Positions 2,008-55,983 of a DNA stretch of 64,000 bases are shown here, piece by piece (the stretch's first letter is position 1; each line of letters starts with the position of its first letter). This stretch comes from an uncultured Candidatus Saccharibacteria bacterium (GTDB taxonomy: Bacteria > Patescibacteriota > Minisyncoccia > UBA6257 > 2-01-FULL-56-20): positions 66,684 to 130,683 of the forward strand of contig CAYIOP010000002.1 in NCBI GenBank assembly GCA_964365185.1, given 5' to 3'. The notes beneath the pieces were generated by a model. It was given only the letters and a program-made list of their open reading frames with translations. It ran no database searches and was not told the DNA's origin. The translations under genes and the position numbers were made by a program.

Positions 2008-3033
2008 TTATCTCTTAATATGTCCATTAAAAGCTCTACTCTTATTGGAAGATTTTTGGCCCCAATCTAGATTATCTTTATACCATAATATCGTTTTTGG
2101 CAAGTATATTTTAAGCCGGTGAGTTGCTCTCCAACCGAGCTTTTTTAGTTTTGAAGCATCAAGCGTATAACGCTCGTCATGTCCTGGCCTATCTGCCACG
2201 TGTTTTACTAAAGACCAGGGCTTTTCAAGGGTTTCGAGAATCCACCGTGTCGTCTGAAGGTTTGTGAGTTCTTCGTCCGATGTCGCGCAATAATTATCGC
2301 CAACCACTCCCTTCTCTAAGAGAGTCATAATTGCTGAGGCGCAATCATCGACGTGCAACCATGAACGGACATTTTTGCCGTGACCATAGATTGGTAAAGA
2401 CAAGTTCTTGAGCGCCCTTATCGTAAAAAAAGGTATCAACTTTTCCGGTAGTTGTCTTGGCCCGTAGTTATTCGCTGGATAAATGATTATAATCGGCAGC
2501 TTCCAAGTTTTGGTAAAAGCGCGAGCCAACATATCCGCCGAGGCCTTGGAAGCCGAATAAGGCGAATTTGGGAAGTACGGCGATAATTCATTGAACTTTC
2601 GTTTTGACTTTAAAGGTAGTGACCCAAAAACTTCATCCGTGGAAACGTGGATAAAAAGTTTTATGTTTGGCGACACGCGTAGGACTTGGAGTAAAGAATG
2701 CGTCCCTAAAACGTTGGTGACGATAAAATTTCTACTTGATTTATGGATTGAGCGATCAACGTGGGTCTCGGCGGCAAAGTGAATGACGTAATCTGTCTTC
2801 CGAAAAAGCTTAATCATCTTCCTCCTTTCGTTAATGTCAGCTTTCACGAAGGACACTCGATTCTTTGGAAGGCCATCTAGATTGTGTCTGTTGCCAGCGT
2901 AAGATAAATTATCAATGACGGCAACTTTGCTTCCCGGTATCCTAGTAAGTAAATAGCGAATAAAATTAGAGCCGATAAATCCGGCTCCGCCTGTCACTAA
3001 AAATCTAGCATTTTTTAAATTTCGTTTTGGCAT
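2008..3033 (-). CDS. rmlB: dTDP-glucose 4,6-dehydratase
   Basis: FLVTGGAGFIGSNF Rossmann motif and HFAAETHVDRS (the RmlB AAESHVDRS signature). 341 aa. Confidence 0.75.
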   Translation of the reverse strand: MPKRNLKNARFLVTGGAGFIGSNFIRYLLTRIPGSKVAVIDNLSYAGNRHNLDGLPKNRVSFVKADINERRKMIKLFRKTDYVIHFAAETHVDRSIHKSSRNFIVTNVLGTHSLLQVLRVSPNIKLFIHVSTDEVFGSLPLKSKRKFNELSPYFPNSPYSASKASADMLARAFTKTWKLPIIIIYPANNYGPRQLPEKLIPFFTIRALKNLSLPIYGHGKNVRSWLHVDDCASAIMTLLEKGVVGDNYCATSDEELTNLQTTRWILETLEKPWSLVKHVADRPGHDERYTLDASKLKKLGWRATHRLKIYLPKTILWYKDNLDWGQKSSNKSRAFNGHIKR

Positions 3034-3205
3034 GTAGCGTAAAGAAACTGTGGTTTCGGGCGAGTGCTTGATTTAAAAAGGCACTGTTCATAGTACACCA
3101 TTTTACGACGAATTCCCAGCGTTTTTTTGCTATGCTCTTAAAGCCAATCAAGAAGCGACTTCTCTATTTTTTATCTAAACCTAAGTTGGGACGCATCTCC
3201 TGGGC

Positions 3206-4459
3206 CTACTCTCTGTTTTTTTGTAAAACCACTCCGGCAATAATTCCCAGCACAAACCAAAATATCCTCACCTGAAAAAAATTAAAAGGAGTTATGTTGG
3301 CCAAAAGCGCGACCCCGGCAATAAGCCAAGAAATTTTTATGTAATCCGCATTATCTTGGATCGCTTGTTCAGCCGTAATCTTTGCCGCTTTTACAAGTTT
3401 AATTATGAGTGTCACAAAAGCCGCAAGCGCCAAAACACCTCCATATACCACCAACTCTAAAAATGTGCCCGTAAATCCCGGGTATTGATCTTTAGCCGCT
3501 AAATCCACAAAACCGAACCCAAAAGGAAAACGATAAATTCCCGCCGCGCTTTCTAACCAAAAATTAATTCGGCTTTCATAATAAGGATCGGGAGTGGTTA
3601 CTAACTCTACTGCGCGTCTTGTTAAATACGAATATGTTTGGTTACGAGATACATTATAGGTATAGTTATTTCCAATTAAAAAATAACCGGCTATAAAAAT
3701 AGCGGCCGTAGCCGTTAGGAAAAATTTTAATTTGTTCCAATCCTTTTGTTTCCATAAAATAATTAATAATAAAATCACAACCAATACTATTGACAGCCAC
3801 GCTGTCCGCGCGCCGCTCCACAAAAGAAACGCCGCAATAAAAGAGAGCCAAGCGCCAAGAGCGATTTTTTTCCACGCCTTTATATTTTCAAAGATAAATC
3901 CCGCGCCCAGAACCAATGCTATTGAAGCCCAAGCCCCAAAAACAATGGGATTTTCTATTAGCCCTGATAATCTAGCCGCTGAAAAATATATTGCCTGATT
4001 AGTACTGATCGTAAGAAAATAAACCGGAATAATTAGGACAAACGAAACGACTATCGCCAGACCTATAAAACGCAGAATCCGCGGATTTCTATAAACCATG
4101 AGCGCCGCCAAAATAAATATCCCTAAGTTAAAAATCAATCGAAAATAATCCATCAGCACTTCTCGGGCTAAAGGATTCGCTCCGAAACGCGCGAAACTAA
4201 ATATTTGGCCAGCAACGATCAATATTGCTACTACCCCCAACCATTTTAAATAAGGAATTAGCTTAGCAAAATTTTGGCGTATAAAATTTCTAAAATCGCC
4301 GCTTAAGAATACGGCCATTGTCGCCAAAATTAGTATGATATCAGCTAAATGTAAAAAGGGAACCAACATCAATTTTTCTGTTCGCAAGCTAAGAAAAAAA
4401 GCAGCGACGAGAAATAAATATTCCGCTATTTTAGCGAAATTCAAACTGAGTTTATTCAT
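3206..4459 (-). CDS. polytopic membrane protein, O-antigen ligase/Wzy-polymerase-like
   Basis: 417 aa with at least 10 transmembrane segments and one larger loop. Located inside a glycan locus. No sharp motif, so the call is tentative. Confidence 0.3.
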   Translation of the reverse strand: MNKLSLNFAKIAEYLFLVAAFFLSLRTEKLMLVPFLHLADIILILATMAVFLSGDFRNFIRQNFAKLIPYLKWLGVVAILIVAGQIFSFARFGANPLAREVLMDYFRLIFNLGIFILAALMVYRNPRILRFIGLAIVVSFVLIIPVYFLTISTNQAIYFSAARLSGLIENPIVFGAWASIALVLGAGFIFENIKAWKKIALGAWLSFIAAFLLWSGARTAWLSIVLVVILLLIILWKQKDWNKLKFFLTATAAIFIAGYFLIGNNYTYNVSRNQTYSYLTRRAVELVTTPDPYYESRINFWLESAAGIYRFPFGFGFVDLAAKDQYPGFTGTFLELVVYGGVLALAAFVTLIIKLVKAAKITAEQAIQDNADYIKISWLIAGVALLANITPFNFFQVRIFWFVLGIIAGVVLQKNRE

Positions 4460-4532
4460 TATATGTGGATCGTCTGGTTATTTATCTTCGATTGTGGTAA
4501 ATATATTATAATAAACTTCATCTACTAGCGCT

Positions 4533-5249
4533 ATGTGTATTCAATCGAAAGACGAACGTTCTCTGCTTTACGAATTCGCTCGTGACAGGTTGCAAAACTT
4601 TAAACAAGTGCTTGATTGCGCCTGCGGCGAAGGTCAAGGAACTTATATTTTAGCTTCTGGCTTGTCCGAGGCATCTTGTCTTGGTATTGATCAGGATTCA
4701 TACGCTATTCGCCTGGCGCGCGAAAGGTTCCATCAACCCAATCTTGCCTTCAAAGAAGGCAACGCCCTCTTACTTTCCGAGCCAGACGCGACATTTGATG
4801 CTGTGGTTAGTTGTCATACCATCGAGCACTTTTCCGATTCTGATCAAAAAAGGTTGCTTTCTGAACTCCGGCGAGTACTTATTCCTGGCGGAATTCTGAT
4901 TATGGCGACTCCAGACCGAGATGTTTGGCGAGCCCTTGGCATAGCCGGTGAGCAAAAAGATCACATTCGCGAACTCACCAAGCAAGAATTTATTAACGAG
5001 GTCTCCGTCGAGGGCTTTAAAGTTCTTGAAGTATTTGGCCAAAACTTATTAATCGCTAAAAATTCTCGTCTGCGCCCACTACTTAACTTGTTTAAAAAAT
5101 TCGATATTTTTTATCTACGCCGACTTCTAGGGAATTTAATCAAAAAAATCGACAAAAATACACAACCCATATCCTTAGACGCGTCTGTTCAACCGCTTCG
5201 AGACAAAGAAAAAGCATCAATCAGTATAATTGTTGCTGAGCGCAGCTAG
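4533..5249 (+). CDS. class I SAM-dependent methyltransferase
   Basis: Motif I VLDCACGEGQGTY and a downstream acidic motif (DAVVSCHTIEH) typical of Methyltransf_11/12. Confidence 0.6.
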   Translation: MCIQSKDERSLLYEFARDRLQNFKQVLDCACGEGQGTYILASGLSEASCLGIDQDSYAIRLARERFHQPNLAFKEGNALLLSEPDATFDAVVSCHTIEHFSDSDQKRLLSELRRVLIPGGILIMATPDRDVWRALGIAGEQKDHIRELTKQEFINEVSVEGFKVLEVFGQNLLIAKNSRLRPLLNLFKKFDIFYLRRLLGNLIKKIDKNTQPISLDASVQPLRDKEKASISIIVAERS

Positions 5250-5273
5250 GAAACACCCTCGCCACCTAAATTA

Positions 5274-6110
5274 ATGCTTGCCAGTCTTATAAAGCTCGCA
5301 AAAGCCATCACCCCGCCGGCAGTTCAAGCGGTCATTGCTGAATTTCGCAACCACCATACCTTGCGTTTTTTCGGAAAAACTTTTACCGGCACCTTTTCGA
5401 CTTTTAAAGAAGTCAATCATAATTTCCGAGGAGCGGTTGTCTATAATTCACAAGAATCAGAACAAGAAGAAATCGCCAATTTCACTAGCTCGCAGGCGGC
5501 AATCCAAGAAGCTAAGCGCGGCATCTCTCCTCAATCAACCGATCACCATTCGCTTCTTTGTGCTTTAACCGCTACCCTGTCTAGTCAAACACCCACTATT
5601 TTGGATATTGGCGGCGGCGCTGGTGAAACATTTGCCCACCTCATTTATTCCTGTCCCAAACAAAGTCCGTCTTTAATTGTTTATGAATTGCCGCCTATCG
5701 TTGAAACTGCGAAAGTAATATTTAAGGATGAAAAACGAATTCATTTTGTTGACTATCTAACCGATCTCAATCAAACAATTGATATTGTTTTTTTAGGGTC
5801 AAGTTTGCAATATTTTGAGGATTATCCATCACTTCTAAATCAAATCATGGCTTTTCATCCGCGAATAATCATTATTGCGTACACCCCCCTTACCAGCGCG
5901 CCGACTTTTGTAACTGCCCAGGTTAATATGCGCGAGCGCGTCATACCAATCAAGGTTATTAATCGCGAGGAGTTAATTAATTATTTAAGTCGTTTCGATT
6001 TCGTTTTGATTAATCAAAATCGATCACGCTCAACCGCTCACTTCCGCAATTTTCTTTCTCCGCAAAACTCGAGCTCCGTGATTAACTTGGTCTTTAAAGC
6101 CAAATCCTAG
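5274..6110 (+). CDS. putative SAM-dependent methyltransferase (TIGR04325-like)
   Basis: ILDIGGGAGETFAHL glycine-rich motif. Size and context resemble polysaccharide-cluster methyltransferases. Confidence 0.4.
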   Translation: MLASLIKLAKAITPPAVQAVIAEFRNHHTLRFFGKTFTGTFSTFKEVNHNFRGAVVYNSQESEQEEIANFTSSQAAIQEAKRGISPQSTDHHSLLCALTATLSSQTPTILDIGGGAGETFAHLIYSCPKQSPSLIVYELPPIVETAKVIFKDEKRIHFVDYLTDLNQTIDIVFLGSSLQYFEDYPSLLNQIMAFHPRIIIIAYTPLTSAPTFVTAQVNMRERVIPIKVINREELINYLSRFDFVLINQNRSRSTAHFRNFLSPQNSSSVINLVFKAKS

Positions 6111-6132
6111 CATCTCGAATTTTATCTCTACT

Positions 6133-6870
6133 ATGAAAACTATTCGCCGAATCAACCTTATTATTGCCGGGATCAAGTTGTTTAAAGATTGGCCCCTCTG
6201 GATTTTATCACGCTTTCATTTATTAAAGAAATCCGGCCTTGGTAAATTTCGATTACGAAACGGAACTGAATTTATAATTGATTTTTCTCATAACAACCTC
6301 GGTACTTTTCAAGAAATTTGGCTGATGGACGTCTATCAAAAAAATCGCCGGCTTAAGCCCAGTGACATCGTTGTAGATATTGGCGCGTCTTTCGGCGCCT
6401 TTTCAGTGTTAGCCGCGAAACAAGGAGCTAAAGTCTATGCTTATGAACCCACTCCTCGGTCCTTTGAACTGCTGGTTAAAAATACCGAAATTTATGGCGT
6501 TAAAGCTTATAATCTCGCGGTTGCTGGCAAAACCGGCCTAGCTGAACTATTCAGCTCTGGCGGCGATGAAGGCAATAGCTTAATTCCTCAGCTGGCCCCC
6601 AGCCAATCTTTCAAAGTCAAAACCACCACTTTAAATGATATTTTAGATCAAATCGGCCACTGCGATTTTTTAAAAATTGACTGCGAAGGCGGAGAAATTG
6701 ATATTTTAAAAAATACCCTAACAAAAACTTTTAATCAGATTGATTACATTGTGCTTGAATATCACCGTAACCTTCCCGAGGTTCTGGACTTATTTAAAAG
6801 TAAAAACTACGAAGTTACCTTTCATGGCAATGATTACGGTTATTTATTCGCTCAAAAACCTAAGAAATAA
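6133..6870 (+). CDS. FkbM-family methyltransferase
   Basis: VVDIGASFGAFSVLAAKQGAKVYAYEPTPRSFELLVKN matches the FkbM-family core. Confidence 0.65.
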   Translation: MKTIRRINLIIAGIKLFKDWPLWILSRFHLLKKSGLGKFRLRNGTEFIIDFSHNNLGTFQEIWLMDVYQKNRRLKPSDIVVDIGASFGAFSVLAAKQGAKVYAYEPTPRSFELLVKNTEIYGVKAYNLAVAGKTGLAELFSSGGDEGNSLIPQLAPSQSFKVKTTTLNDILDQIGHCDFLKIDCEGGEIDILKNTLTKTFNQIDYIVLEYHRNLPEVLDLFKSKNYEVTFHGNDYGYLFAQKPKK

Positions 6871-11740: not shown

Positions 11741-12709
11741 ATGGATATTTTAAAAACCATCAAGGAGTTTAATCAGAAGAAAATTCTAGTGGTCGGCGAC
11801 ATTATGTTAGACCATTATTTAAAAGGCGGTGTTTCTCGCATTTCGCCCGAAGCGCCTGTGCCAGTATTGGCGAAATCTTCCGAAAGTTATGCCTTGGGCG
11901 GCGCCGGCAATGTGGCCGCTAATATCGCTTCTTTAAAAGGCCGGGTTACTCTTTTAGGCGTTACCGGCGATGATCCCGAGTCAGGAATTATCAAAAAAAT
12001 TTGCGCTGGCCTAAAAATAACTCCGCGGCTTATCATTGAAAAGAAAAGGCCCACCACCCTTAAAACCCGGGTTGTCTCCGGCCGCCATCAACTTTTAAGA
12101 ATCGACACCGAAACCACTGCCCGCCCCAAAACCCAAACCGAAAATGAACTTATTAAAACCATTAACCGCTTACCCAATTTTAATATTATTGTAATTTCCG
12201 ATTATGCCAAAGGTTGCTTAACTAAGAAAGTTTTTACGGCGCTTAAAAATCGTTTTAAAAATGTTCAAATTATCGCGGATATAAAACCATCTCAAGCCAA
12301 TCTCTACTCAAATGTTTTCCTAATTACACCCAATCTTAAAGAAACTTACGACTTAACCGGTTTAAACGCCCAAGAACCTAAGTCAGCTGAAAAATCCGCT
12401 AAACTTTTATCCGACCGTTTTTCTTCTTCGGTTATTATCACTCGCGGAGAGCACGGGCTCACGCTCTACGAAAAAGAAACAAAAAAAATCACCCATATCC
12501 CGTCGCATACTATCCATATTTTTGACGTAACCGGCGCCGGAGATACTGTTGTTGCCGTTTTAGCTTTGATGGTTGCTTTAGGCGAAGACCTTAAAATTTC
12601 TGCCCGAGTGGCCAATTTGGCCGCTGGTCTGGTTGTGAGCGAAGAGGGAACCGCCACTCTCTCTCCGCAAGTTTTAATCGCTGCTCTTAAAAATCGCCGT
12701 GTTTTCTAA
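11741..12709 (+). CDS. hldA: D-beta-D-heptose 7-phosphate kinase (stand-alone HldE domain I)
   Basis: ILVVGDIMLDHYLKGGVSRISPEAPVPVL is the RfaE domain I ribokinase-like signature. C-terminal DVTGAGD motif. Confidence 0.8.
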   Translation: MDILKTIKEFNQKKILVVGDIMLDHYLKGGVSRISPEAPVPVLAKSSESYALGGAGNVAANIASLKGRVTLLGVTGDDPESGIIKKICAGLKITPRLIIEKKRPTTLKTRVVSGRHQLLRIDTETTARPKTQTENELIKTINRLPNFNIIVISDYAKGCLTKKVFTALKNRFKNVQIIADIKPSQANLYSNVFLITPNLKETYDLTGLNAQEPKSAEKSAKLLSDRFSSSVIITRGEHGLTLYEKETKKITHIPSHTIHIFDVTGAGDTVVAVLALMVALGEDLKISARVANLAAGLVVSEEGTATLSPQVLIAALKNRRVF

Positions 12710-15023
12710 TTTCCTTAAACATTTCATCAAAGTTAGATTTGTCGGTTTTCTCCGGTCCCTCTTTTTATTTTTAATCAACCCACGGACTAATCAAAAAAAT
12801 TGGGAGGAGCGCCTGCTTCTTATCAATCTTCAAGGCATCGGCGATCTTGTTGTTTTTACTTCGGTCTTGAAACATTATCACCAAGCTTTCCCTAGTAAAA
12901 AAATCTATCTTCTTATTAAAGAAGACACTGGTCTTAAAAAAGCGTTATCCGCAGTCGGGCAATGCGAAGTTATCACTCTTAACTATCGTCGCTTCACCAC
13001 CGACCCTTTTTATGGTTTTTCTCTAATTTCAAAATTGAAGCAGATTGGTTTTGAAACTGTTTTAAATCATGATTTCAGCGCCGCCGAAATTATGGGTAAA
13101 TTTATCGCCGTCGGGCTTGGCGCTAAACAAGTTATCGGTTATGAGGGCATGGCTCTTGAATTTATCGCGCCCTTTAATCTTCAGCAACGTCTCAATATCC
13201 GCTACGCAATCAATCATCTTTTTCCCAGATTCACCGATCTTATCCCGCGCATTGATTATCGGTACGATCTTTTAGAGCGACTCCCAGGAGCAATTAGTCA
13301 TTACCTTGCTATCTTTGAGCACGCCTCTAAGCGAAAAGAAAATGACTATTCAACTTTTTTGCCATCTCCTTCGTCGCTTGAAAATCTCAATCTTCGTCTG
13401 CCTCCAAAACCCTACGCGGTTTTTAATCTTTCTGCTTCTAATACCTACAAACGTTGGCCTATAGAAAATTTCGCGGGCCTAGCCCAAAGCCTAAAAGCCA
13501 AAAACTTTGAAATTGTTTTAATTGGTCTAACTGAAAGCCAAAATCTGGGCCAGGAGTTTAAAAATAATTTCTCCGGAGAAGTTTTTAATTTAATCGGGCA
13601 AACGTCTTTAAACGATTTGATTTATGTTATTAGTCATTCATCCCTGGTTGTCTCAAACGACACTTCTTCCGTTCACATTGCCGTGGCGCTAAAAAAATCA
13701 TCTCTTTGCTTAACGGGTGGCGGGCAGTTTGGGATGTTTGCCGATTACGGCTATCAAAATTTAAACCATTGGGTTTATAAAAAAACCAATTGCTTCTGCG
13801 ATAATTGGCGCTGCGGAAAAAATCTTGAAAATCAGTCCGCGCCTTGTGTCTCCGCCATCACTCTTGATGAAGCCGAGCAAAAATTACAATCACTTCTCTC
13901 TGAAATTCAAAATCCCAATCCCGATTCTTTTTTGTTTAAAACCAGTTTTGCCCCGCCGCCGGTTAAAAGCGGAAAATTTAAAATTATTTTTTCAGGGATT
14001 CAATTCGAGAATTATAACTTTGGACGAAAAAGTTTTGAATATAGCAACTTTCTTTTGACCCTAAGAGCTATGCCCAATTTGGAAGCGTTGTTCTATCCTT
14101 TTGATTTTATTCTTCAAATGGGAAAAAAGAAATTCAACGAACGCCTGCTCGATTTAGTTCGGCGCGAAAAACCCGACCTTTTTTTCGCGTTTATGTATAC
14201 CGATGAACTGGATGTAAAAACGCTCTCTGAAATTAAAAAATTAACTAAGAGTGTTGCTTGGTTTGCCGACGATCACTGGCGACTTGATAACTATTCCCGT
14301 CTCTACGCTCCTTATTTTACTAAAGCGATTACAACCTGGAGTAAAGGTATCGAAAATTATAAACGCTACGGCATTGAGAACATCCTTCGCTCGCAGTGGG
14401 CGTGCAATCACTTTGTTTGGCATCCCGCCGCAGTTTCTAATCAGGATATCGATGTTAGTTTTGTGGGGCAGTATAATCCGGCTCGCGGGGAAATTATAAG
14501 AAAACTTCGGTCTTTAGGCGTTAATGTTTGGGTTCGTGGTTGGGGTTGGCCCGAAGGCCGCCTCCAGGGTGGCGACATGGTTCAGGCCTTTAGTCAGAGC
14601 AAAATTAACCTCAATTTTAACACGCCGCCTAGCCGCTTAACGCCTAAATTATTAGCCCGCCTTTTCTTTAGGCGTTCTCTAAATAGAATTCGTCCGAGCT
14701 GGCGCTTCGCCAGTAATTTTCGCTCCTGGCTTAATATTTCTATCCCTCAAATCAAAGCCCGCCCTTTTGAAGTTGTCGGCTGCCAGGCCTTTCTTATATC
14801 AGCTTTTGCCGATGATGTTCACAGTTACTATGAAGATAAGAAAGAAATTGTCTATTACCGCGATATTCCCGACTTGGTTCAAAAAATCCAGTTCTATCTT
14901 AAAAATCCTGAACTTAGAAAAAAAATCGCTGAAGACGGATACAGGCGCACTCTCAAAGAACATACCTATACAAAAAGATTCACTGAAATTTTTGAAAAAG
15001 TCGGATTTAAATACCACGCCTAA
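12699..15023 (+). CDS. two-domain glycosyltransferase: N-terminal GT9 heptosyltransferase fused to C-terminal CgeB-like (DUF3880/GT1-like) domain
   Basis: N-terminal ERLLLINLQGIGDLVVFTSVLKHY and LVVSNDTSSVHIAVAL are GT9 hallmarks. The C-terminal region (VWVRGWGWPEGRLQGGDMVQAFSQSKINLNFN ... KEHTYTKRFTEIF) resembles CgeB-family glycosyltransferases. The only in-frame start is GTG at 12699, overlapping the hldA stop. Confidence 0.6.
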   Translation: MFSNFLKHFIKVRFVGFLRSLFLFLINPRTNQKNWEERLLLINLQGIGDLVVFTSVLKHYHQAFPSKKIYLLIKEDTGLKKALSAVGQCEVITLNYRRFTTDPFYGFSLISKLKQIGFETVLNHDFSAAEIMGKFIAVGLGAKQVIGYEGMALEFIAPFNLQQRLNIRYAINHLFPRFTDLIPRIDYRYDLLERLPGAISHYLAIFEHASKRKENDYSTFLPSPSSLENLNLRLPPKPYAVFNLSASNTYKRWPIENFAGLAQSLKAKNFEIVLIGLTESQNLGQEFKNNFSGEVFNLIGQTSLNDLIYVISHSSLVVSNDTSSVHIAVALKKSSLCLTGGGQFGMFADYGYQNLNHWVYKKTNCFCDNWRCGKNLENQSAPCVSAITLDEAEQKLQSLLSEIQNPNPDSFLFKTSFAPPPVKSGKFKIIFSGIQFENYNFGRKSFEYSNFLLTLRAMPNLEALFYPFDFILQMGKKKFNERLLDLVRREKPDLFFAFMYTDELDVKTLSEIKKLTKSVAWFADDHWRLDNYSRLYAPYFTKAITTWSKGIENYKRYGIENILRSQWACNHFVWHPAAVSNQDIDVSFVGQYNPARGEIIRKLRSLGVNVWVRGWGWPEGRLQGGDMVQAFSQSKINLNFNTPPSRLTPKLLARLFFRRSLNRIRPSWRFASNFRSWLNISIPQIKARPFEVVGCQAFLISAFADDVHSYYEDKKEIVYYRDIPDLVQKIQFYLKNPELRKKIAEDGYRRTLKEHTYTKRFTEIFEKVGFKYHA

Positions 15024-16031
15024 ATGATTTCTAAACTCGTCTCAATTATTATTCCGGCTTGGAACGCTGAAAAATATATTAAAGAAGCGATTGATTCAGC
15101 CCTAAATCAAACCCATCCCAATACAGAAGTGATTGTTGTAAACGACGGCTCAACCGATGGAACTGAATCAATTCTGAAATCTTATCAAAATCCCAAGCTT
15201 CGCTATTTTAATCAAGAGAATCAAGGTTTGGCTGGAGCTAGAAATACTGGCATCAAAAATTCTCAAGGTGAGTATATTGCCCTTCTAGACAGCGATGATA
15301 TTTTTCTGCCGAGCAAAGTCGAGCGCCAAGCCGAAATTTTAGAAGATAATCCCGACTACGGCATTTGCTATTCCGACCTTCTGCACTTTAACGACCCGCC
15401 TGACCCAGCCCGCTTCGAGTCGCGAAGCGAATCTGGCGGGTCGCCTAGTGGAACATGGCGGGCAGGCGAAAGCCACAGAAAATTTTTTCATCACCGCTAC
15501 CGCTATCCATCTGGCGATATTTTTGGTGAGATTATTCATCGGCAATTCATTAATCCTTTAGCTGTGATGATTCGCCGCGGAATCTTCAATCAGTTTGGGC
15601 TCTTTGACCAAAATCTCCGGCGCTCCGAGGACTGGGAGCTTTGGTTGCGTTTAGCCAAAAATGGAGTTAAATTTTATTACTTAAACGAAGTTTTAGCCCA
15701 CTATCGCGTCCGCTCGATTGGCAACTTAAGTTCTCTAGAATCCGAGCCGGAAATGAAAGAAAAAAATCTGGAAATTTTCACTCGCCTTGCGGCATCTTTA
15801 ACTTTGCTTCAAAAAAAGCAATACCGTTTCTATAAAATTTTAAAAAAGTTAAGATTAAAAGTGGTCTTTGCCAGCTTAATTGTCGGCGACCGAAAAAAAG
15901 CGCTTTTCTTTGTTCGAGAACTTTCCCCCTCTTGGAAATTTTTAGTCAGTGTTTTACCGGTTGCCTTCTGGAAATTTTTTCTTAGATTCATAAGAAAAAT
16001 CAAACATCGTCTTCTGCTAAAAAAAATGTAA
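15024..16031 (+). CDS. glycosyltransferase family 2
   Basis: VSIIIPAWNAEKYIKEAIDSALNQTHPNTEVIVVNDGSTDGT and LDSDD motifs. It contains a GC-rich in-frame segment around 15395-15500 (see findings). Confidence 0.75.
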   Translation: MISKLVSIIIPAWNAEKYIKEAIDSALNQTHPNTEVIVVNDGSTDGTESILKSYQNPKLRYFNQENQGLAGARNTGIKNSQGEYIALLDSDDIFLPSKVERQAEILEDNPDYGICYSDLLHFNDPPDPARFESRSESGGSPSGTWRAGESHRKFFHHRYRYPSGDIFGEIIHRQFINPLAVMIRRGIFNQFGLFDQNLRRSEDWELWLRLAKNGVKFYYLNEVLAHYRVRSIGNLSSLESEPEMKEKNLEIFTRLAASLTLLQKKQYRFYKILKKLRLKVVFASLIVGDRKKALFFVRELSPSWKFLVSVLPVAFWKFFLRFIRKIKHRLLLKKM

Positions 16032-16041
16032 TATTCTTCTA

Positions 16042-17019
16042 ATGCACCACCTCCTTTCGCTTAAAAACCAAACCCGAGAAGAACTTAAAGCAATTTTAGA
16101 TTTAGCCGGAAAAATCAAACAAGAGTACCGTCTTAAAAAACTTACTCCTTATCTGGCTGGTCAAACTCTAATTATGCTTTTTCAAAAGACCTCCACGCGC
16201 ACCCGACTTTCTTTTGAAGCCGGAATGACCGAACTTGGCGGGCATGCCATCTTTCTCGACTCTCGTACCACTCAGCTCGGCTTGTCGGATTTTGCTGATG
16301 AAATCCGAGCGATTATGAGAATGGGGGATATTTTGATGTTTCGGGCCTTGCGGGCCGCGGATGTCGAACTCGCCGCCTCAATGAATGTTATTCCTGTTAT
16401 TGATGCTTGTAGCGAAAAATATCATCCCTGCCAAGCTCTGGGCGATATTCTGACAATGTCTGAAATAGCTGGGGGGTTGGATAAAATCCGTAAAGTTGTT
16501 TGGTTGGGAATCGAAAATAATGTCTCCAATACCTTAATGCTCGCTTGCGCCAAACTCGGCATCGAAATTTTCATTGTTGCTCCCGAAAGGCATGCGGCCA
16601 GTCGCGATGAGGAACTTATTAGTCAAGCTGAAAGCACTGGTAAAGTTCATCGCACTTTGGATTTAGAATTCGCTCTTGATGGAGCTGATTTTGTGCATAC
16701 GGATACCTGGATGGATATGGAATTTTTTTCCACCGAAGGTGGATCGGCCTCTGGCGGGGAAAATAGCCAGGTTCGTCCGGAATTTAAACAAGAATACGAG
16801 CGCCGGATAAAAATTTTTTCTCCTTTTCAACTTAACCAAAAACTATTGCTTAAATACGCTCCTCGAGCAAAAATTATGCATTGTATGCCTTGCCACATTG
16901 GCTATGAAATTACCAGAGACGCCATAGACAGTCCTAATTCAGTAATTTTTGATCAAGCCGAAAATCGCAAGCATATCCAAAAAGGAATTCTCCTTTGGCT
17001 TCTCGGTCGTAGCCGTTAA
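16042..17019 (+). CDS. aspartate/ornithine carbamoyltransferase-family protein (OTC-like)
   Basis: STRTRLSFEAGMTELGG carbamoyl-phosphate binding motif, HCMPCH (compare the OTC HCLPA motif) and a VIFDQAENRKH C-terminal block. It carries an inserted EGGSASGGEN peptide. Confidence 0.6.
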   Translation: MHHLLSLKNQTREELKAILDLAGKIKQEYRLKKLTPYLAGQTLIMLFQKTSTRTRLSFEAGMTELGGHAIFLDSRTTQLGLSDFADEIRAIMRMGDILMFRALRAADVELAASMNVIPVIDACSEKYHPCQALGDILTMSEIAGGLDKIRKVVWLGIENNVSNTLMLACAKLGIEIFIVAPERHAASRDEELISQAESTGKVHRTLDLEFALDGADFVHTDTWMDMEFFSTEGGSASGGENSQVRPEFKQEYERRIKIFSPFQLNQKLLLKYAPRAKIMHCMPCHIGYEITRDAIDSPNSVIFDQAENRKHIQKGILLWLLGRSR

Positions 17020-17064
17020 CGCTTTTGTTATTCTTCGAAATTCTTTATTCTTAATTCTAACCGT

Positions 17065-20713: not shown

Positions 20714-21817
20714 ATGAAAAAAGTACTCATCACCGGAGGGGCCGGATTCATCGGCAGCCATACCGCCGATGCCCTAAAAAAACTTAGGTATAAAATAAAA
20801 ATCCTCGACAATCTCGCCCCACCCACCCATAAGACACCAAAATGGCCCGCCTATGTTTTAGGCAAGGGCTATGAACTTATTAAGGGCGATGTCTGCGATC
20901 GCCGGGTTGTATCGAGAGCCCTCCAAGGAGTTGATTTTATCTTTCATTTCGCGGCCTACCAAGACCAAAGGAATGACTTCTCTCATTTTTTTAAAATTAA
21001 TACCTTAAGTTCCGCCTTGCTCTATGAGCTTATCACTGAGAAAAAATTCCCGGTTAAAAAAATAATTCTGGCTAGCACTCAGTTTGTTTATGGCGATGGC
21101 AAATATTTATGTTCCCGCTCTAAAAAAGAATTTTTTCCCGAACCCCGCGCTTTGTCGGCACTAAAAAAAGGGGACTGGTCTATTAAATGTCCCAACGGCC
21201 ACCCTGCCACTTTTTTGAAATTTGAAGAAGATCAAAAACTCACCCCCACCAATTCCTACGGTCTCTCCAAGCAAGCCATGGAAAATTTGGCTCTTCGCTT
21301 TGGCAAAACCCATGGCCTTTCCACTACCATCCTTCGTTATTCTATAGTCCAGGGTCCACGACAATCTCCGCATAATCTTTATTCCGGCGCTATGCGGATT
21401 TTTGTAAGCCAAGCCCTGGCCAGCGTTCCACTGACTGTTTATGAAGATGGCCTAGAAACCAGAGATTTTGTAAATATTGAAGATGTCGTCCGAGCCAATC
21501 TCCTTACCCTTAAAAACCCAAAAACAAATTTTCAGATATTGAATGTTGGCGGTGGTCGCGGCTATCGAGTGATTGATTTTGCCAAACTTATTAAAAAAAT
21601 TAGCCGCTCCTCTTCGTCGATTCTAGTCGGCTCTTTCCGTCGTACTGATACTCGCCACGCCGTCTCTGATATCTCTAAAATAAAAAAATTGGGCTGGTCT
21701 CCCCGACGTGGAATTGATTATTCAATTAAAACTTATCTTGAGTGGTTTACTGATAATGGTTTCGATAAAAAACTTCATTCTCAAGACCTCGTTAAACTCC
21801 AAGAAGGCATAAAATAA
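20714..21817 (+). CDS. NAD-dependent epimerase/dehydratase-family protein with Cys-containing insertion
   Basis: MKKVLITGGAGFIGSH Rossmann motif and SDR fold. An insertion ...KYLCSRSKKEFF...WSIKCPNGHP... separates the YGDG and YxxxK regions. Confidence 0.55.
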   Translation: MKKVLITGGAGFIGSHTADALKKLRYKIKILDNLAPPTHKTPKWPAYVLGKGYELIKGDVCDRRVVSRALQGVDFIFHFAAYQDQRNDFSHFFKINTLSSALLYELITEKKFPVKKIILASTQFVYGDGKYLCSRSKKEFFPEPRALSALKKGDWSIKCPNGHPATFLKFEEDQKLTPTNSYGLSKQAMENLALRFGKTHGLSTTILRYSIVQGPRQSPHNLYSGAMRIFVSQALASVPLTVYEDGLETRDFVNIEDVVRANLLTLKNPKTNFQILNVGGGRGYRVIDFAKLIKKISRSSSSILVGSFRRTDTRHAVSDISKIKKLGWSPRRGIDYSIKTYLEWFTDNGFDKKLHSQDLVKLQEGIK

Positions 21818-21867
21818 TAAGCTAATTTTATTGACTTATTGGTCGGCTTGTTTTAATCTACCTAAAC

Positions 21868-22890
21868 ATGATTGTTGTTCGCGCTCCCTTAAGAATTAGC
21901 TTTGTTGGCGGCGGCACCGACCTCCCCGATTTTTATCATCAGCGTCCTGGCCGCGTTATTTCAACCGCCATCGACAAGTTTGTCTATGTGGTAGTCAATC
22001 GTACCCCCATGATCGATAAAGTCGTGGCGCGTTATTCTATTACTGAATCAGTCAGCCACCCCAGCGAACTCGAGCACACCCGCATCAAAGCTGCTCTAAC
22101 GGATTTGGGCATTCACAAAAATATTGAAATTTCTTCTTTCGCCACCATGCCCTCTAAAACTGGTCTTGGTTCCTCCTCCAGTTTTTCAGTGGCTTTAATC
22201 AAGGCCCTAAACGCTTTTCAAGGTAAAAAAATTGATGCTCGCGAAGCCGCTGAAGCTGCTAGTCGTCTTGAGATTGAATTGGTAGGTGAGCCTATTGGCA
22301 AACAAGATCAATACGCTGCTTCCTTAGGCGGTTTTAATGTGATTCAGTTTAATCCCGATGAATCAGTTGATGTCTCCCCGGTTTTAATTGATTATAAAAA
22401 ACGTTTGGCTTTAGAGAGTAGCATCCTTTTGTTTTTTACGGGCATCACTCGCTCTACTTCTTCGGTTCTAACCGAGCAAAAAGCCAATATCGACAGTAAG
22501 TTTGGGACTCTCTCTGAGATGGCGGATTCGGTTCCGGAATTTAGCAACCTTGTTCTTGAAGGCGATATTCCGGCTATGGGTGCCATGCTTCATCAGGGTT
22601 GGTTAAAGAAAAAAAGCTTAGCGTCTAATTTATCTAATTCTTTAATTGATGATCTTTATAATTCTGGAATTTCCTCTGGCGCTTATGGCGGCAAGATTTT
22701 GGGCGCTGGCGGCGGTGGCTGTATTCTATTTTTAAGCCCTCAGGATAAAAAAGATTCTATTCGCGAAGCAGTCAAAACCGTGGCCGAAAAAAATAATCTT
22801 GTCGGTTTTCGCGAGATTCCAGTTGAATTTGTTCAAAGTGGCGCCGAAGTTTTATATAACGGTGATCATTTCCATTCTCATTTTTCGTAA
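21868..22890 (+). CDS. hddA: D-glycero-alpha-D-manno-heptose 7-phosphate kinase (GHMP kinase)
   Basis: MIVVRAPLRISFVGGGTDLPDFY N-terminus is characteristic of HddA-type GHMP kinases, plus the GLGSSSS ATP-binding motif. Confidence 0.65.
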   Translation: MIVVRAPLRISFVGGGTDLPDFYHQRPGRVISTAIDKFVYVVVNRTPMIDKVVARYSITESVSHPSELEHTRIKAALTDLGIHKNIEISSFATMPSKTGLGSSSSFSVALIKALNAFQGKKIDAREAAEAASRLEIELVGEPIGKQDQYAASLGGFNVIQFNPDESVDVSPVLIDYKKRLALESSILLFFTGITRSTSSVLTEQKANIDSKFGTLSEMADSVPEFSNLVLEGDIPAMGAMLHQGWLKKKSLASNLSNSLIDDLYNSGISSGAYGGKILGAGGGGCILFLSPQDKKDSIREAVKTVAEKNNLVGFREIPVEFVQSGAEVLYNGDHFHSHFS

Positions 22891-22894
22891 AATT

Positions 22895-23500
22895 ATGAAA
22901 ACTCACATCGAAGATTTTAAAAACAAAGTTGATCTGGCTTTAAAAGCCCTGCCCACCGAAGAAATTGCCAAGGCCTTGAATATTCTGGAAGCTGTTTATG
23001 AACGGGATGGCCGCATCTATGTTTTTGGCAACGGCGGCTCTTTGGCCATCGCCACCCATTGGGTGAGCGATTTTAATAAAACCGTTTTCAGCCATCATTT
23101 AGATAAGCATCATCGTCGCTTTCAAGCTATTCGCGTGCCGACCACCGAGGAAGAATTAACCGCTTGGGCCAACGATGCTGGTTTTGATATGGTTTTTGCC
23201 GGCCCCCTTGAAAACTACTTGCAAGATCCGGATGTCGTAATTGCCATCTCTAGCTCCGGCGCTTCCCCGAATGTTATTAAAGCTGTCGAGCTTGCCCGAA
23301 GTCGCAAAGTTCCTGTTATTGGGATTTCTGGTTTTGGCTCTGATAATCAGTTAAATCAACTCGCCACCGTCAAGATTCATGTCCCGGCTGAAAAAGGGGA
23401 ATATGAAATTGTTGAAGGCGTTCACGGGATTATCCTGCATCTCATGACTAAATATTTCAAAGATTATTTCGATCACATAGTAGCCAAGTCAGAAAACTAA
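22895..23500 (+). CDS. gmhA: SIS-domain phosphoheptose isomerase (second GmhA paralog)
   Basis: YVFGNGGSLAIATHWVSDF SIS motif. ATG at 22895 is chosen because the listed ORF start at 22799 would overlap hddA. Confidence 0.6.
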   Translation: MKTHIEDFKNKVDLALKALPTEEIAKALNILEAVYERDGRIYVFGNGGSLAIATHWVSDFNKTVFSHHLDKHHRRFQAIRVPTTEEELTAWANDAGFDMVFAGPLENYLQDPDVVIAISSSGASPNVIKAVELARSRKVPVIGISGFGSDNQLNQLATVKIHVPAEKGEYEIVEGVHGIILHLMTKYFKDYFDHIVAKSEN

Positions 23501-24051
23501 TGAAAGCAGTTTTCTTAGATCGTGACGGGACTATTAATAAGGAAGTTAACCTCCTAAGAAATCTAAAACAGCTGAAAATCCTTCCCAAAGCCGCCGAAGC
23601 CATCAGGAAAATCAACCAACTTGGTTTTCTGGTGGTTGTGATTACTAATCAAGCTGTGGTGGCCCGCGGCTGGCTAACTGAAAAAGGCGTGGATGAAATT
23701 CACGCTGTTTTAATAAAGCGCCTGGCAAAAAAAGGCGCCAAAATTGATGCTATCTATTACTGCCCGCACCATCCCGAAGCTAATTTTAAAAAATATCGCG
23801 TTAAATGTCGCTGCCGCAAACCGAATCTTGGTATGATTTTAAAAGCCGCCAAAAAGTTCAAAATTAATTTTAAAAAAAGTTTTATGGTCGGCGACCACAC
23901 CCGCGACATTTTAACCGGCCATCGCGCTAGCCTCAAAACCATTTTAGTTAAAACTGGCTACGCTGGCAAAGATGGCTACCACGACATAAAGCCCGATTTC
24001 ACAGCCAAGAATCTTTTTGAAGCTGTAAAAATTATCAAACGTAATTCTTAA
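23500..24051 (+). CDS. gmhB: D-glycero-D-manno-heptose 1,7-bisphosphate phosphatase (HAD IIIA)
   Basis: VFLDRDGTIN HAD motif I and the GmhB zinc-binding C-x-H-x...C-x-C motif (YYCPHHPEANFKKYRVKCRCRKPNLGMI). Confidence 0.8.
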   Translation: MKAVFLDRDGTINKEVNLLRNLKQLKILPKAAEAIRKINQLGFLVVVITNQAVVARGWLTEKGVDEIHAVLIKRLAKKGAKIDAIYYCPHHPEANFKKYRVKCRCRKPNLGMILKAAKKFKINFKKSFMVGDHTRDILTGHRASLKTILVKTGYAGKDGYHDIKPDFTAKNLFEAVKIIKRNS

Positions 24052-24111
24052 TTCCTATTTCGTAATTCATAATTCGTCACTCATGATTCATAATTCATCA
24101 CTCATTAATCA
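24042..24111. repeat. heptamer-periodic array (TAATTCN units x about 10) spanning the gmhB stop and hddC start
   Basis: taattct taattcc tatttcg taattca taattcg tcactca tgattca taattca tcactca ttaatca. Confidence 0.6.
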
Positions 24112-24859
24112 AGCCATCCTTCTCTCCGCCGGCCTAGGCACTCGTCTCCGTGATATTACCAAAGGCGAAATTCCAAAAGTTATGGTCCCGCTTCTTGGTA
24201 AGCCGCTTTTGGAGTGGCACCTTGAGGCTTTCAAAAAATACGGCGTGAGTGATTTTTTCATCAATCTTCATTATCTCCCCGAAGTTATTAAAAATTATTT
24301 TGGCGACGGCTCTAAATGGGGAGTTAAAATTCAATACAATTTCGAACCAGAAATCATGGGTACCGCGGGCGGTATCAAAGGTTTCTCCGCTGAAGGCGGA
24401 TCCGCCTCTGGCGGAGAAAACCAGCTCGCTGATAATTTTTTTGTCATCTACGCCGACACCTTTTATCAAATCAATTATAATCGCATTGCCGACCTTTATT
24501 TTTCACTTGAAAACCCGATTGGTTTAGGCACTGTGAGAATCACCGATCACCCCGAGGATTCTGATTTGGCTATCGTCGGAGAAAACAACGAAGTCAAAGA
24601 ATTTCTAATTAAACCGCATAAAAAACTCCCCGAAAAAAGTTTTTATGGCACTTCTGCTCCCTATATCTTTTCCAAAAAAATTCTGGAATATATTCCAGAA
24701 AATAAATATTACGAAATTGATCATAATCTTGTGCCGGATCTCTTAGCTCGTGGCTTTAAATATTACGCTTATAAATTAAAAAGCGATGAATTCCGAAAAG
24801 ACATTGGCACTGCCGATCGCTACCATTTTGTTGAAAATTATCTGAAAAATTTAAAATAA
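24083..24859 (+). CDS. hddC: D-glycero-alpha-D-manno-heptose 1-phosphate guanylyltransferase-like sugar nucleotidyltransferase
   Basis: AILLSAGLGTRLRDIT nucleotidyltransferase motif and GTAGGI. Position after gmhB as in GDP-heptose clusters. It carries the inserted EGGSASGGEN peptide. Confidence 0.6.
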   Translation: MIHNSSLINQAILLSAGLGTRLRDITKGEIPKVMVPLLGKPLLEWHLEAFKKYGVSDFFINLHYLPEVIKNYFGDGSKWGVKIQYNFEPEIMGTAGGIKGFSAEGGSASGGENQLADNFFVIYADTFYQINYNRIADLYFSLENPIGLGTVRITDHPEDSDLAIVGENNEVKEFLIKPHKKLPEKSFYGTSAPYIFSKKILEYIPENKYYEIDHNLVPDLLARGFKYYAYKLKSDEFRKDIGTADRYHFVENYLKNLK

Positions 24860-55949: not shown

Positions 55950-55983
55950 AACCTATAACCTATAATCTAACACCTAATTTAAA

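Follow-up and report, generated by a model that had tools for sequence, protein, structure and literature searches.

How did two unrelated enzymes encoded in one stretch of bacterial DNA come to carry nearly the same 30 nucleotides (nt) in frame? The window, that is, the whole 64,000-nt stretch from an uncultured Candidatus Saccharibacteria bacterium that was analysed, contains an ornithine carbamoyltransferase (OTC)-like gene and a sugar-nucleotidyltransferase gene in which a preliminary description had noticed a shared decapeptide, EGGSASGGEN. Its authors proposed a small in-frame insertion element, or a gene-conversion tract, tolerated as a surface loop, and took the synonymous nature of the differences between the copies to mean that the peptide is maintained.

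Two copies of a 30-nt segment in unrelated hosts

The host enzymes are indeed unrelated, with different Pfam domains. In the intervals first described, copies A and B are identical at 26 of 30 positions, and the four differences are all synonymous third positions (ggt/ggc, tcg/tcc, ggg/gga and aat/aac). The perfect 12-nt palindrome noticed in copy B, GGCGGATCCGCC, was also recovered. Two exact occurrences of the core GGATCSGCCTCTGGCGG were counted against 0.10 expected by chance, and none of 100 shuffles reached a count of two. The insert was correctly described as ten residues long, but its boundaries were misplaced. Empty sites in the syntenic relative L121, together with the cross-genome consensus, put the start of the inserted unit 6 nt further upstream. 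The trailing GAA AAT or GAA AAC ('EN') is host sequence, which orthologs without the insert have too. The features of the two genes are as follows.

16042..17019, + strand: host gene 1, OTC-family protein, 325 aa; Pfam OTCace_N and OTCace
16729..16758, + strand: element copy A, TCCACCGAAGGTGGATCGGCCTCTGGCGGG; in-frame STEGGSASGG, OTC residues 230-239
16726..16761, + strand: copy A with target half-sites, TTT / element / GAA
24083..24859, + strand: host gene 2, sugar-nucleotidyltransferase (NTP-transferase), 258 aa, in a heptose/NDP-sugar gene cluster; Pfam NTP_transferase
24386..24415, + strand: element copy B, TCCGCTGAAGGCGGATCCGCCTCTGGCGGA; in-frame SAEGGSASGG, NTP-transferase residues 102-111
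24383..24418, + strand: copy B with target half-sites, TTC / element / GAA

With these boundaries the copies differ at 5 of 30 positions, one of which changes an amino acid (Thr/Ala), and each host protein gains exactly 10 residues. Both genes differ from their L121 counterparts by exactly 30 nt; the empty site matching copy B reads GAT TTT / GAA AAA. The closest OTC orthologs (70-75% identity) lack the insert, as do NTP-transferase orthologs of 74-80% identity, while more distant NTP-transferase orthologs have it at the same site. The exact additions relative to empty sites, together with a patchy occurrence in ortholog trees, bear out a small in-frame insertion element. The surface-loop proposal also agrees with the AlphaFold models, where each insert comes out as a predicted disordered loop and the rest of the fold is modelled with confidence: pLDDT falls below 50 at OTC residues 232-240 (model mean 93.2) and at NTP-transferase residues 108-112 (model mean 92.0). 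The OTC model resembles OTC/PTC crystal structures with a TM score of about 0.84. An assembly artefact is unlikely, since an independent ENA protein (P0003) also contains copy A, and two independent assemblies of Hainich groundwater (L119 and L120) have copy B unchanged.

Sequence, structure and distribution of element E

The consensus of the inserted unit, which we call element E, is TCCGCCGAAGGCGGATCCGCCTCTGGCGGA. Its 30 nt form two tandem 15-nt hairpins (stem 6 bp, loop 3 nt), and all six frames are free of stop codons. Copies A and B have four mismatches and one mismatch to the consensus, respectively. Extending the search beyond the window, we scanned one genome per species with the codon-degenerate pattern TCNRCNGARGGNGGNTCNGCNTCNGGNGG, in which third codon positions are free, and recovered at least 118 loci. 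Over 117 copies, the 10 free positions were 92-99% invariant, except loop position 24. At least 119 loci came from an independent metagenome scan with the exact pattern, and their flank logo and frame usage agreed with those of the genome scan. What is conserved is the DNA and not the peptide; copies also lie in spacers, in reverse and in other phases, and the conclusion that synonymous change reflects maintenance of the peptide is not supported.

In 870 kb of genome-scan loci, 113 perfect tandem double hairpins were found, compared to none in shuffled sequence. Other, mutually complementary stems, often unlike between the two hairpins, form 13 of these 113. The TCCACC/GGTGGA stem, whose compensated A-T pair sets hairpin 1 of copy A apart from the consensus, recurs among copies. 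Since variant hairpins were chosen for perfect pairing, a formal covariation test would be circular, and support for the structure is the count against shuffled sequence. By this measure, structure is the conserved feature of the E family. Copy B has a folding energy of -15.2 kcal/mol (z = -3.1). No Rfam family was found at either window site, and none overlaps E in the 19 loci with non-coding E.

Reduced and compound forms were also observed. Half-elements and two-residue (SA) remnants occur, as do a form of 51 nt with three hairpins and a nested insert of 57 nt. The window itself holds one further palindrome.

15396..15467, + strand: nested GC-rich palindrome, 72 nt; in-frame 24 aa, PPDPARFESRSESGGSPSGTWRAG; in the family-2 glycosyltransferase gene 15024-16031

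It is missing from L121, and glycosyltransferase orthologs carry variable PPA...RAG inserts at its site. Its folding energy is -25.5 kcal/mol (z = -3.6), with none of 200 shuffles folding as well. With E it has in common a CCCGCC/GGCGGG outer stem and TCTGGCGGG, and on this architecture it is probably a member of the same family. A GC-rich stretch at 14522-14596 was considered as a fourth insert and rejected, as it aligns to the relative without gaps.

Among the matches listed, E was found in Patescibacteria, Omnitrophota, Planctomycetota, Verrucomicrobiota, Bacteroidota and Gammaproteobacteria, a spread that represents a sample (at least 118 and at least 119 loci) and depends on MAG binning. 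Locus GC content ranged from 31 to 70% in the genomes and from 30 to 72% in the metagenomes. All matches listed came from MAGs or metagenome contigs; several MAGs carry E on two or three contigs, and E-bearing contigs reach chromosome size (e.g. CP070837.1, 1.55 Mb). Neither the exact nor the degenerate pattern matched any of the 2.9 million viral contigs from public metagenomes in IMG/VR, and no real match was found among PLSDB plasmids or INPHARED phages. The proteins that host E are unrelated and include OTC, NTP-transferase, AspRS, PheT, DnaG, MnmA, GatC, MurE and T9SS tails, and in the OTC tree the carriers are scattered over at least nine clades. About 55-60% of copies lie well inside long ORFs; the others include copies in spacers. 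The benign Ser/Ala/Gly phase was the commonest reading inside genes in both scans, although the reverse orientation reads SARGGSAFGG and another phase PPKADPPLA. Relative to the gene, genic copies were in the same orientation in 55 cases and in the opposite orientation in 21, compared to 8 and 11 for intergenic copies. These counts point to selection on copies inside genes only.

Insertion site and origin of the copies

In both sets of independent copies (117 and 115), the flank logo reads T/T/Y on the left of the element and R/A/A on its right, and the target is not duplicated. Kerfeldbacteria sisters repeat the pattern seen between the window and L121, with TTT-E-GAA in L123 and an uninterrupted TTT/GAA in L124. 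At a single site in the PheT N-terminus the element lies in opposite orientations in L006 and L086, and the same is true of one site in MnmA (L157 and L173). While the OTC flanks diverge by 27-37%, the copies of E differ at 0-5 of 30 positions; on these sequence comparisons, E is younger, or more constrained, than its host genes; gene conversion, or a strong constraint on the DNA, could give the same picture as a recent insertion. Some copies are flanked by direct repeats of 7-14 nt, which we considered as target-site duplications and rejected, because they are repeat units of tandem heptamer arrays occupying the spacers of these genomes. Apart from a few orthologous genes, the flanks of the 118 genome-scan loci are not homologous to one another, indicating that E stands alone. 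A simple gene conversion between the two window genes, one of the origins first suggested, is rejected because E occurs in many phyla with unrelated flanks. Together, these results demonstrate that E enters between TTY and RAA as an exact 30-nt unit, in either orientation and without duplicating its target, that it occurs in bacteria of many phyla, and that the same sites in conserved genes have received it repeatedly and independently.

We therefore consider it likely, judging from sequence, that each window segment is a copy of a mobile DNA element that is ultra-short, palindromic and non-autonomous. Its persistence inside genes appears to follow from a length that is a multiple of three, six stop-free frames and a commonest reading that gives a disordered, Ser/Ala/Gly-rich decapeptide loop. 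Peptide-level selection then appears to filter the copies, which decay by point mutation, loss of a single hairpin and nesting of further hairpins. The element may move as a folded single strand of DNA, or possibly RNA, handled by a trans-acting enzyme that recognises hairpins, for which a Y1/HUH-type protein (RAYT or IS200/IS605-like) would be the most plausible candidate. The target preference, TTY on the left and RAA on the right, is symmetric and counts against a Y1 model; it is unlike the one-sided target predicted for a Y1 transposase, yet follows if both strands are treated alike. No mobilising enzyme or autonomous partner was found in the locus DNA, where no gene family recurs beside E, and all-against-all clustering of 2,426 ORFs from the loci returned only housekeeping families. 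Within about 870 kb of genome-scan loci there was no larger parent element with E halves at its ends and no gene enclosed by a pair of E halves. With RAYT and TnpA consensus queries, tblastn on 1.69 Mb of locus DNA detected no TnpA and one RAYT-like gene (in L153), which is flanked by its own terminal repeats, unrelated to E. In our view, E is selfish or neutral, and not functional, for both window enzymes.

The alternative that survives best, though we think it unlikely, is retroposition of RNA. E would be the cDNA of a small two-hairpin RNA, made by target-primed reverse transcription at a blunt break between a T-run and an A-run, where the primer would pair with the A-run. Such a mechanism would account for the absent target duplication and for the T-run/A-run target, and a single fixed template would explain an identical sequence in unrelated hosts. 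Retroposition was argued likewise for the mitochondrial double-hairpin elements of Allomyces, in the part of PMC2800124 that cites Paquin et al. 2000. No reverse transcriptase was found among the locus ORFs near any copy, though, and there is neither a poly-A tail nor a series of 5' truncations. The perfectly complementary stem variants fit replication of a structured DNA family equally well.

Vertical inheritance of ancient insertions is improbable. In this case E would be immobile today, its DNA held by constraint or gene conversion, and its patchiness would reflect repeated precise loss. The Thr form that P0043 and P0045 have in common with the window, the clustering of P0009, P0014 and P0021, and the existence of decayed and half copies are in its favour. 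Counting against it are the opposite orientations at one site in PheT and MnmA, sister taxa that differ by exactly 30 nt without a scar, the low divergence of E (0-5 of 30 positions) beside that of its flanks, and its presence in many phyla with unrelated flanks.

We give a similarly low probability to a useful cis-element kept for its function, whether a site for protein binding, uptake, methylation or restriction, or a hairpin in the mRNA with an effect on translation or stability. The extreme conservation, which includes most third positions, is consistent with such a role, as are the GGATCC/GATC and four GGCGGA motifs at the centre of E, and a role as RNA elements has been proposed for REPs (PMC3733652). 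Nevertheless, copies follow no positional logic: they turn up anywhere in genes of any kind, in either orientation, and also in spacers. Close relatives manage without E. Many variants have other stems, which indicates that the structure is kept and a binding sequence is not. We know of no precedent for an uptake or binding signal common to many phyla.

A peptide module under selection at the protein level, in which the EGGSASGGEN loop serves the enzymes, was the idea of the preliminary description. It draws on the synonymous differences within the interval first described and on the prevalence of the Ser/Ala/Gly phase inside genes. It is already contradicted by the present data and very improbable: third positions are nearly invariant over 117 copies, copies of E are also non-coding, reversed or read in other phases, and the hosts are unrelated, with an insert that is predicted to be disordered and that their closest orthologs lack. 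Last, an assembly or library artefact, suspected at first sight from an identical sequence in many phyla and from matches that all lie in MAGs or metagenome contigs and never in plasmids or phages of cultured organisms, is very improbable, since locus-specific variants recur in independent assemblies, the additions are exact with intact flanking bases, diverged, half and nested copies occupy orthologous sites, the frame and orientation bias is confined to genes, and 2.9 million viral contigs drawn from public metagenomes gave no match.

Returning to the mobile-element reading, we raise tentatively, and with more doubt than confidence, that E and its stem variants are a previously undescribed, minimal class of mobile DNA. 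This class would consist of a 15-nt hairpin module, usually paired to 30 nt and adapted to protein-coding genes by a length divisible by three, six stop-free frames and translation into a flexible loop, that spreads across phyla in groundwater and sediment communities with machinery outside the known transposase types. E might then be inserted by a hairpin-specific strand-transfer enzyme, or a reverse transcriptase with a fixed template might write the identical 30 nt into TTY/RAA sites.

If E is mobile, a single 30-nt sequence has entered essential genes (aminoacyl-tRNA synthetases, primase, MurE, MnmA and GatC) and metabolic genes in many phyla, and stays nearly unchanged while its hosts diverge. 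To our knowledge, it would be among the smallest mobile elements of bacteria. It would be a non-coding element that spreads horizontally among very distant uncultivated lineages, and a natural, repeated experiment on how proteins tolerate a 10-residue loop. It would also be relevant to the annotation and alignment of CPR and MAG proteins, in which recurrent inserts regarded as 'lineage-specific' may be mobile DNA. E could mark DNA exchange within groundwater communities, and finding its mover could reveal a compact, sequence-specific DNA-insertion activity.

Comparison with known systems

Literature searches with the peptide, the palindrome and the hairpin core returned nothing relevant to E, and on the topics of CPR, palindromes and in-frame insertions the only papers found were organellar or dealt with REP/RPE. 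MITEs are non-autonomous elements of 70-300 bp that consist of little more than transposon ends and create target duplications. In contrast, E has 30 nt, its filled and empty sites differ by exactly that length without target duplication, and no autonomous parent with E ends was found in the genome-scan loci (about 870 kb). IS200/IS605-type elements have hairpins with guide and linker segments, and a Y1 transposase inserts them without duplication on the 3' side of a one-sided, sequence-specific target of 4-5 nt. The missing duplication and the TTY left flank of E fit such elements; its equally strong RAA right flank and its lack of room for guide or linker segments do not. DNA uptake sequences (USS/DUS) are competence-linked and family-specific and arise by point mutation in existing sequence, whereas E is an insertion relative to empty sites and crosses phyla.

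REP and REPIN sequences are GC-rich, hairpin-forming repeats of 20-40 bp, dispersed through genomes and often present as adjacent dimers; one end bears an unpaired tag, GTAG or CGTC (Di Nocera et al. 2013, PMC3733652). Intragenic REPs add 20-30 residues, and REPs in general are regarded as miniature transposons that are mobilised in trans (PMC3733652). Similarly, E is a short, GC-rich palindrome with two 6-bp stems, dispersed over at least 118 and at least 119 loci in the two scans. Unlike REPs, which are mainly extragenic and specific to a species or family, E is mostly intragenic and near-identical across many phyla. It inserts at a defined TTY/RAA site, GTAG and CGTC are absent from E and from its flank logo, where T-runs and A-runs are found instead, and no RAYT gene, which in REP genomes is flanked by the REP itself, is linked to it in 1.69 Mb of locus DNA. 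Rickettsia palindromic elements (RPE) are selfish palindromic DNA inserted in frame in unrelated housekeeping genes, where the extra peptide is compatible with the fold (reviewed in PMC10969869). E likewise inserts in frame as a palindrome and leaves the host protein intact. RPEs are about 100-150 bp long and limited to Rickettsia and relatives, compared to 30 nt for the cross-phylum E, which had no Rickettsiales among the matches listed.

The mitochondrial double-hairpin elements (DHEs) and GC clusters (Allomyces DHEs, yeast GC42 and sponge RHEs) are very short, sporadic, GC-rich units of one or two hairpins, sometimes in coding regions, whose modules merge, nest and shuffle (PMC2800124, PMC4478555). 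Flanking duplication is absent from the Allomyces DHEs, whereas yeast GC clusters have AG/ACT flanking repeats (PMC2800124, PMC4478555). E has no sequence similarity to DHEs, and these are organellar and lineage-restricted, while E is found, mostly within genes, in free-living or symbiotic bacteria of many phyla. With DHEs it has in common two adjacent GC-rich hairpins, a sporadic occurrence, nesting modules and the lack of flanking duplication. Collectively, these comparisons place E with the REP/RPE-like and mitochondrial double-hairpin palindromic elements, and the mitochondrial double-hairpin elements and GC clusters are its best match in architecture and behaviour.

Boundaries and empty sites of the inserts in the window

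The preliminary description had drawn attention to two 30-nt segments (16735-16764 and 24392-24421) encoding EGGSASGGEN in an ornithine-carbamoyltransferase-family (OTC) gene and an NTP-transferase gene. Inspection of the sequence located both 30-mers at these coordinates, with four differences, all at synonymous third positions, and confirmed the palindrome GGCGGATCCGCC in the second copy. The 17-nt core occurs exactly twice in the 64 kb compared to 0.10 occurrences expected from shuffles, and both host ORFs are long, with the domains OTCace_N/OTCace and NTP_transferase. The shared segment is real but starts 6 nt further upstream than proposed, F-S-(T/A)-E-G-G-S-A-S-G-G being common to both proteins. 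Boundaries were set by codon alignment to the syntenic relative L121, which has the same gene order and ~75% protein identity to the window and lacks both inserts, together with a cross-genome consensus.

16729-16758, copy A of the 30-nt element, in the OTC gene (16042-17019)
24386-24415, copy B of the 30-nt element, in the NTP-transferase gene (24083-24859)
15396-15467, 72-nt GC-rich nested palindrome, 24 residues, in frame in a family-2 glycosyltransferase gene (15024-16031), absent in L121

At the OTC site, TTT TTC/AAC AAA in L121 (slash, insertion point) aligns with TTT TTT (30 nt) GAA AAT in the window, and at the NTP-transferase site AAA GAT TTT/GAA AAA aligns with GGT TTC (30 nt) GAA AAC. 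The inserted unit encodes S(T/A)EGGSASGG, and the "EN" previously assigned to the insert is host sequence. Since the inserts are exact 30-nt additions relative to empty sites in relatives, the central proposal of an in-frame insertion element was correct. The sequence of copy B recurs unchanged in L119 and L120, two other assemblies from Hainich groundwater, and copy A is also present in an ENA protein of independent origin (P0003), so the inserts are not explained by chimeric assembly.

The 72-nt palindrome has a folding z-score of -3.6. Many glycosyltransferase orthologs carry variable PPA...RAG inserts at its site, which resemble CCCGCC...GGCGGG hairpins in another reading phase. From its architecture, this third insert is probably a relative of the 30-nt element.

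Two further features of the window were observed. The C-terminal half of a 774-aa ORF (12699-15023) corresponds to a separate 349-aa Glyco_trans_1_2 gene in L121, and the ORF appears to be fused from two genes or to start at a different position. The gene run at 20714-24859 (epimerase, GHMP sugar kinase, SIS isomerase, HAD phosphatase and NTP-transferase), which includes the host gene of copy B and has its synteny kept in L121, looks like a glycero-manno-heptose nucleotide-sugar pathway.

Occurrence across phyla and among orthologs

A scan in which each bacterial and archaeal species was represented by one genome used a pattern for S-(A/T)-E-G-G-S-A-S-G-G that left all third codon positions free, for which ~1 chance match is estimated. 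At least 118 loci were found. Hosts among the matches listed, assigned from MAG labels and GC content, are Patescibacteria of many candidate phyla, Omnitrophota, Planctomycetota, Verrucomicrobiota/Kiritimatiellae/Lentisphaerae, Bacteroidota/Ignavibacteria, Zixibacteria, Gamma- and Deltaproteobacteria, Desulfotomaculaceae and Dehalococcoidia. All the matches listed are MAGs, mostly from groundwater and sediments, with locus GC spanning 31-70%, so they do not represent one mis-binned lineage. In one of these MAGs (L036), a 23S rRNA gene match (3014-6165) extends over 3,152 nt where the model has 2,925 positions, suggesting an rRNA insertion.

At each free third position, 107-116 of 117 copies agree, loop position 24 excepted, giving the consensus TCCGCCGAAGGCGGATCCGCCTCTGGCGGA. 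A scan of metagenome contigs with the exact consensus yielded at least 119 loci (GC 30-72% among the matches listed). Flanks are unrelated between loci; the element is therefore a free-standing 30-nt unit. The earlier reasoning that the peptide is maintained was wrong, as conservation lies at the DNA level, and the unit is a DNA element rather than a conserved peptide. The phenomenon is far wider than two genes of one window, the two copies being members of a family of minimal hairpin elements that spans phyla.

The insert is missing from the closest of 120 OTC homologs (70-75% identity), and ~15 more distant ones carry S(A/T)EGGSASGG or a decayed form (SAQGGPASG, half-size SAEGG or bare SA) at exactly the window's position. 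The NTP-transferase orthologs follow the same pattern, some with extra material nested mid-insert. Carriers are spread over at least nine distinct clades of an OTC neighbour-joining tree computed after masking of the insert, and some sister pairs (P0007/P0107 and P0006/P0113) are discordant for its presence. The Kerfeldbacteria pair L123/L124 provides an exact filled and empty DNA site, GAG TTC TTT (element) GAA GAA GGA versus GAA TTT TTT/GAA GAA GGA. The 120 nt around the OTC site are 27-37% different between orthologs whereas the element copies show 0-5 differences over 30 positions; between L123 and L126, flanks are 37% different and the element 0/30.

Hairpins, target sites and reading frames

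The element consists of two tandem modules, TCCGCC-GAA-GGCGGA and TCCGCC-TCT-GGCGGA, and, together with the T-run and A-run that usually flank it, also forms a 36-nt near-perfect palindrome. Perfect tandem double hairpins number 113 in the 870 kb of fetched loci, compared to none after shuffling. Thirteen of these have other stems, including TCAGCC/GGCTGA, CCCTCC/GGAGGG, TCTGCC/GGCAGA and CCCGCC/GGCGGG, often with two unlike modules, and a compensated pair, TCCACC/GGTGGA, is present in copy A and several other copies. The excess over shuffles, the differing stems and the compensated pair favour two independent hairpins over a single long one. Composite forms also occur: a recurrent 51-nt three-hairpin form (L049 7122-7172; L113 1251-1301), also read as SAEGAAPAGGQGSASGG in an AspRS, a four-hairpin string (L089) and, in the NTP-transferase ortholog P0189 (L247), an element whose loop 1 harbours a nested 57-nt palindrome.

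In both samples the three bases preceding the element are T/T/Y and the three following are R/A/A, with T at -2 in 91/117 and 91/115 and A at +2 in 96/117 and 99/115 of the matches listed. No target duplication was found in the flanks of the listed copies. Direct repeats of 7-14 nt at ~15% of copies were considered as duplications and rejected, being units of spacer heptamer tandem arrays. Compared to a flank-swapped control, inverted repeats of 6 nt or more in the flanks are enriched ~2.5-fold, so the element tends to be centred within a local palindrome.

Heptamer arrays (e.g. TAATTCA, AATTCTT, CTAAATT) occupy many intergenic spacers of the window, where 7 is the commonest tandem period; similar arrays lie beside ~15% of copies in other phyla among the matches listed.

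17039-17058, heptamer array
24042-24098, heptamer array, extending into the NTP-transferase gene start
31278-31324, heptamer array
33997-34012, heptamer array
36657-36673, heptamer array
38099-38123, heptamer array
55950-55969, heptamer array

Several sites have been occupied repeatedly and independently. One PheT N-terminal site carries opposite orientations in L006 (SARGGSAFGG) and L086 (SAEGGSASGG), as does one MnmA site (L157 and L173). Also occupied are the AspRS site between the last two residues of DFP(F/L)FE (L010, L113, L220, L245), the GatC C-terminus (L057, L063, L087) and T9SS C-terminal domains (L059, L077, L101, L044). In other lineages the OTC site holds an unrelated palindromic insert (P0044 and P0068); in P0044 (L246, gene 301-1311), ~15 codons follow the MEFF motif at TTC/GAC, TTCGACTCGACAGGGTCGACCCTGAGCGAAGTCGAA..., read as DSTGSTLSEVERVHGS. 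Elements of this kind therefore have hot spots at certain TTY/RAA sites of conserved genes.

Six-frame translations of the element contain no stop codon.

Reading of the element in long ORFs, among the matches listed
Forward, phase 0 (SAEGGSASGG): genomes 40, metagenomes 37
Reverse, phase 0 (SARGGSAFGG): genomes 16, metagenomes 16
Forward, phase 1 (PPKADPPLA): genomes 10, metagenomes 5

The RRRRIRLWR phase is nearly absent because an in-gene TTYRAA cannot be read there with a TRA codon (TAA and TGA are stops). Among the matches listed, 55 genic copies share the gene's orientation and 21 oppose it, compared to 8 versus 11 for intergenic copies between co-directional genes. As the bias is restricted to genic copies, it suggests that the encoded peptide is under selection, rather than an intrinsic strand bias. 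AlphaFold models built from ortholog alignments had mean pLDDT of 93.2 (OTC) and 92.0 (NTP-transferase), and the OTC model superposed on crystal structures of OTC and of putrescine transcarbamylase (TM ~0.84). The low-confidence exceptions, OTC residues 232-240 and NTP-transferase 108-112, lie inside the inserts and are predicted as coil between regular elements, in line with the surface loop suggested earlier.

Proposed mobilisation and comparison with known elements

From the comparisons between genomes, we infer that the element is mobile. It had no match in 2.9 million viral contigs, was not found in plasmids or cultured phages, and adjoined no recurrent gene family among ORFs of the genome-scan loci. 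As for a RAYT partner, 1.7 Mb of sequence yielded a single RAYT-like tyrosine-transposase gene (L153 9081-9671). On its flanks are inverted repeats specific to it, GGTACCATTTCTAAAAGTGCC, and a duplication upstream; the gene lies 4.8 kb from a copy of the element, to which it and its terminal repeats are unrelated in sequence.

For a classical DDE transposase, a 30-bp duplex is too short for end-to-end synapsis. For this reason, and because intra-strand pairing is the conserved feature, we favour a route in which an enzyme that recognises structure, the best precedent being of the HUH/Y1 type, would transfer the element in folded, single-stranded form. The main alternative would be a route through RNA and reverse transcription, an origin proposed for the duplication-free double-hairpin elements of Allomyces (PMC2800124). 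There is a substantial chance that the insertion mechanism is new.

A full-text literature search found no description of the element's sequence or peptide. The element is classed with palindromic miniature mobile DNA, a known kind. REPs are hairpin repeats of 20-40 bp, at times intragenic and frequently dimeric, with GTAG/CGTC tags (PMC3733652); they are chiefly extragenic and lineage-specific, whereas the present element is cross-phylum. RPEs likewise insert in frame into genes, those of Rickettsia, but are ~150 bp (PMC10969869) rather than 30 nt. The best match is to mitochondrial GC clusters and double-hairpin elements, which share its size, two hairpins, nesting and merging, and occasional residence in coding regions, and whose enzymology is likewise unknown, although they are organellar (PMC4478555, PMC2800124).
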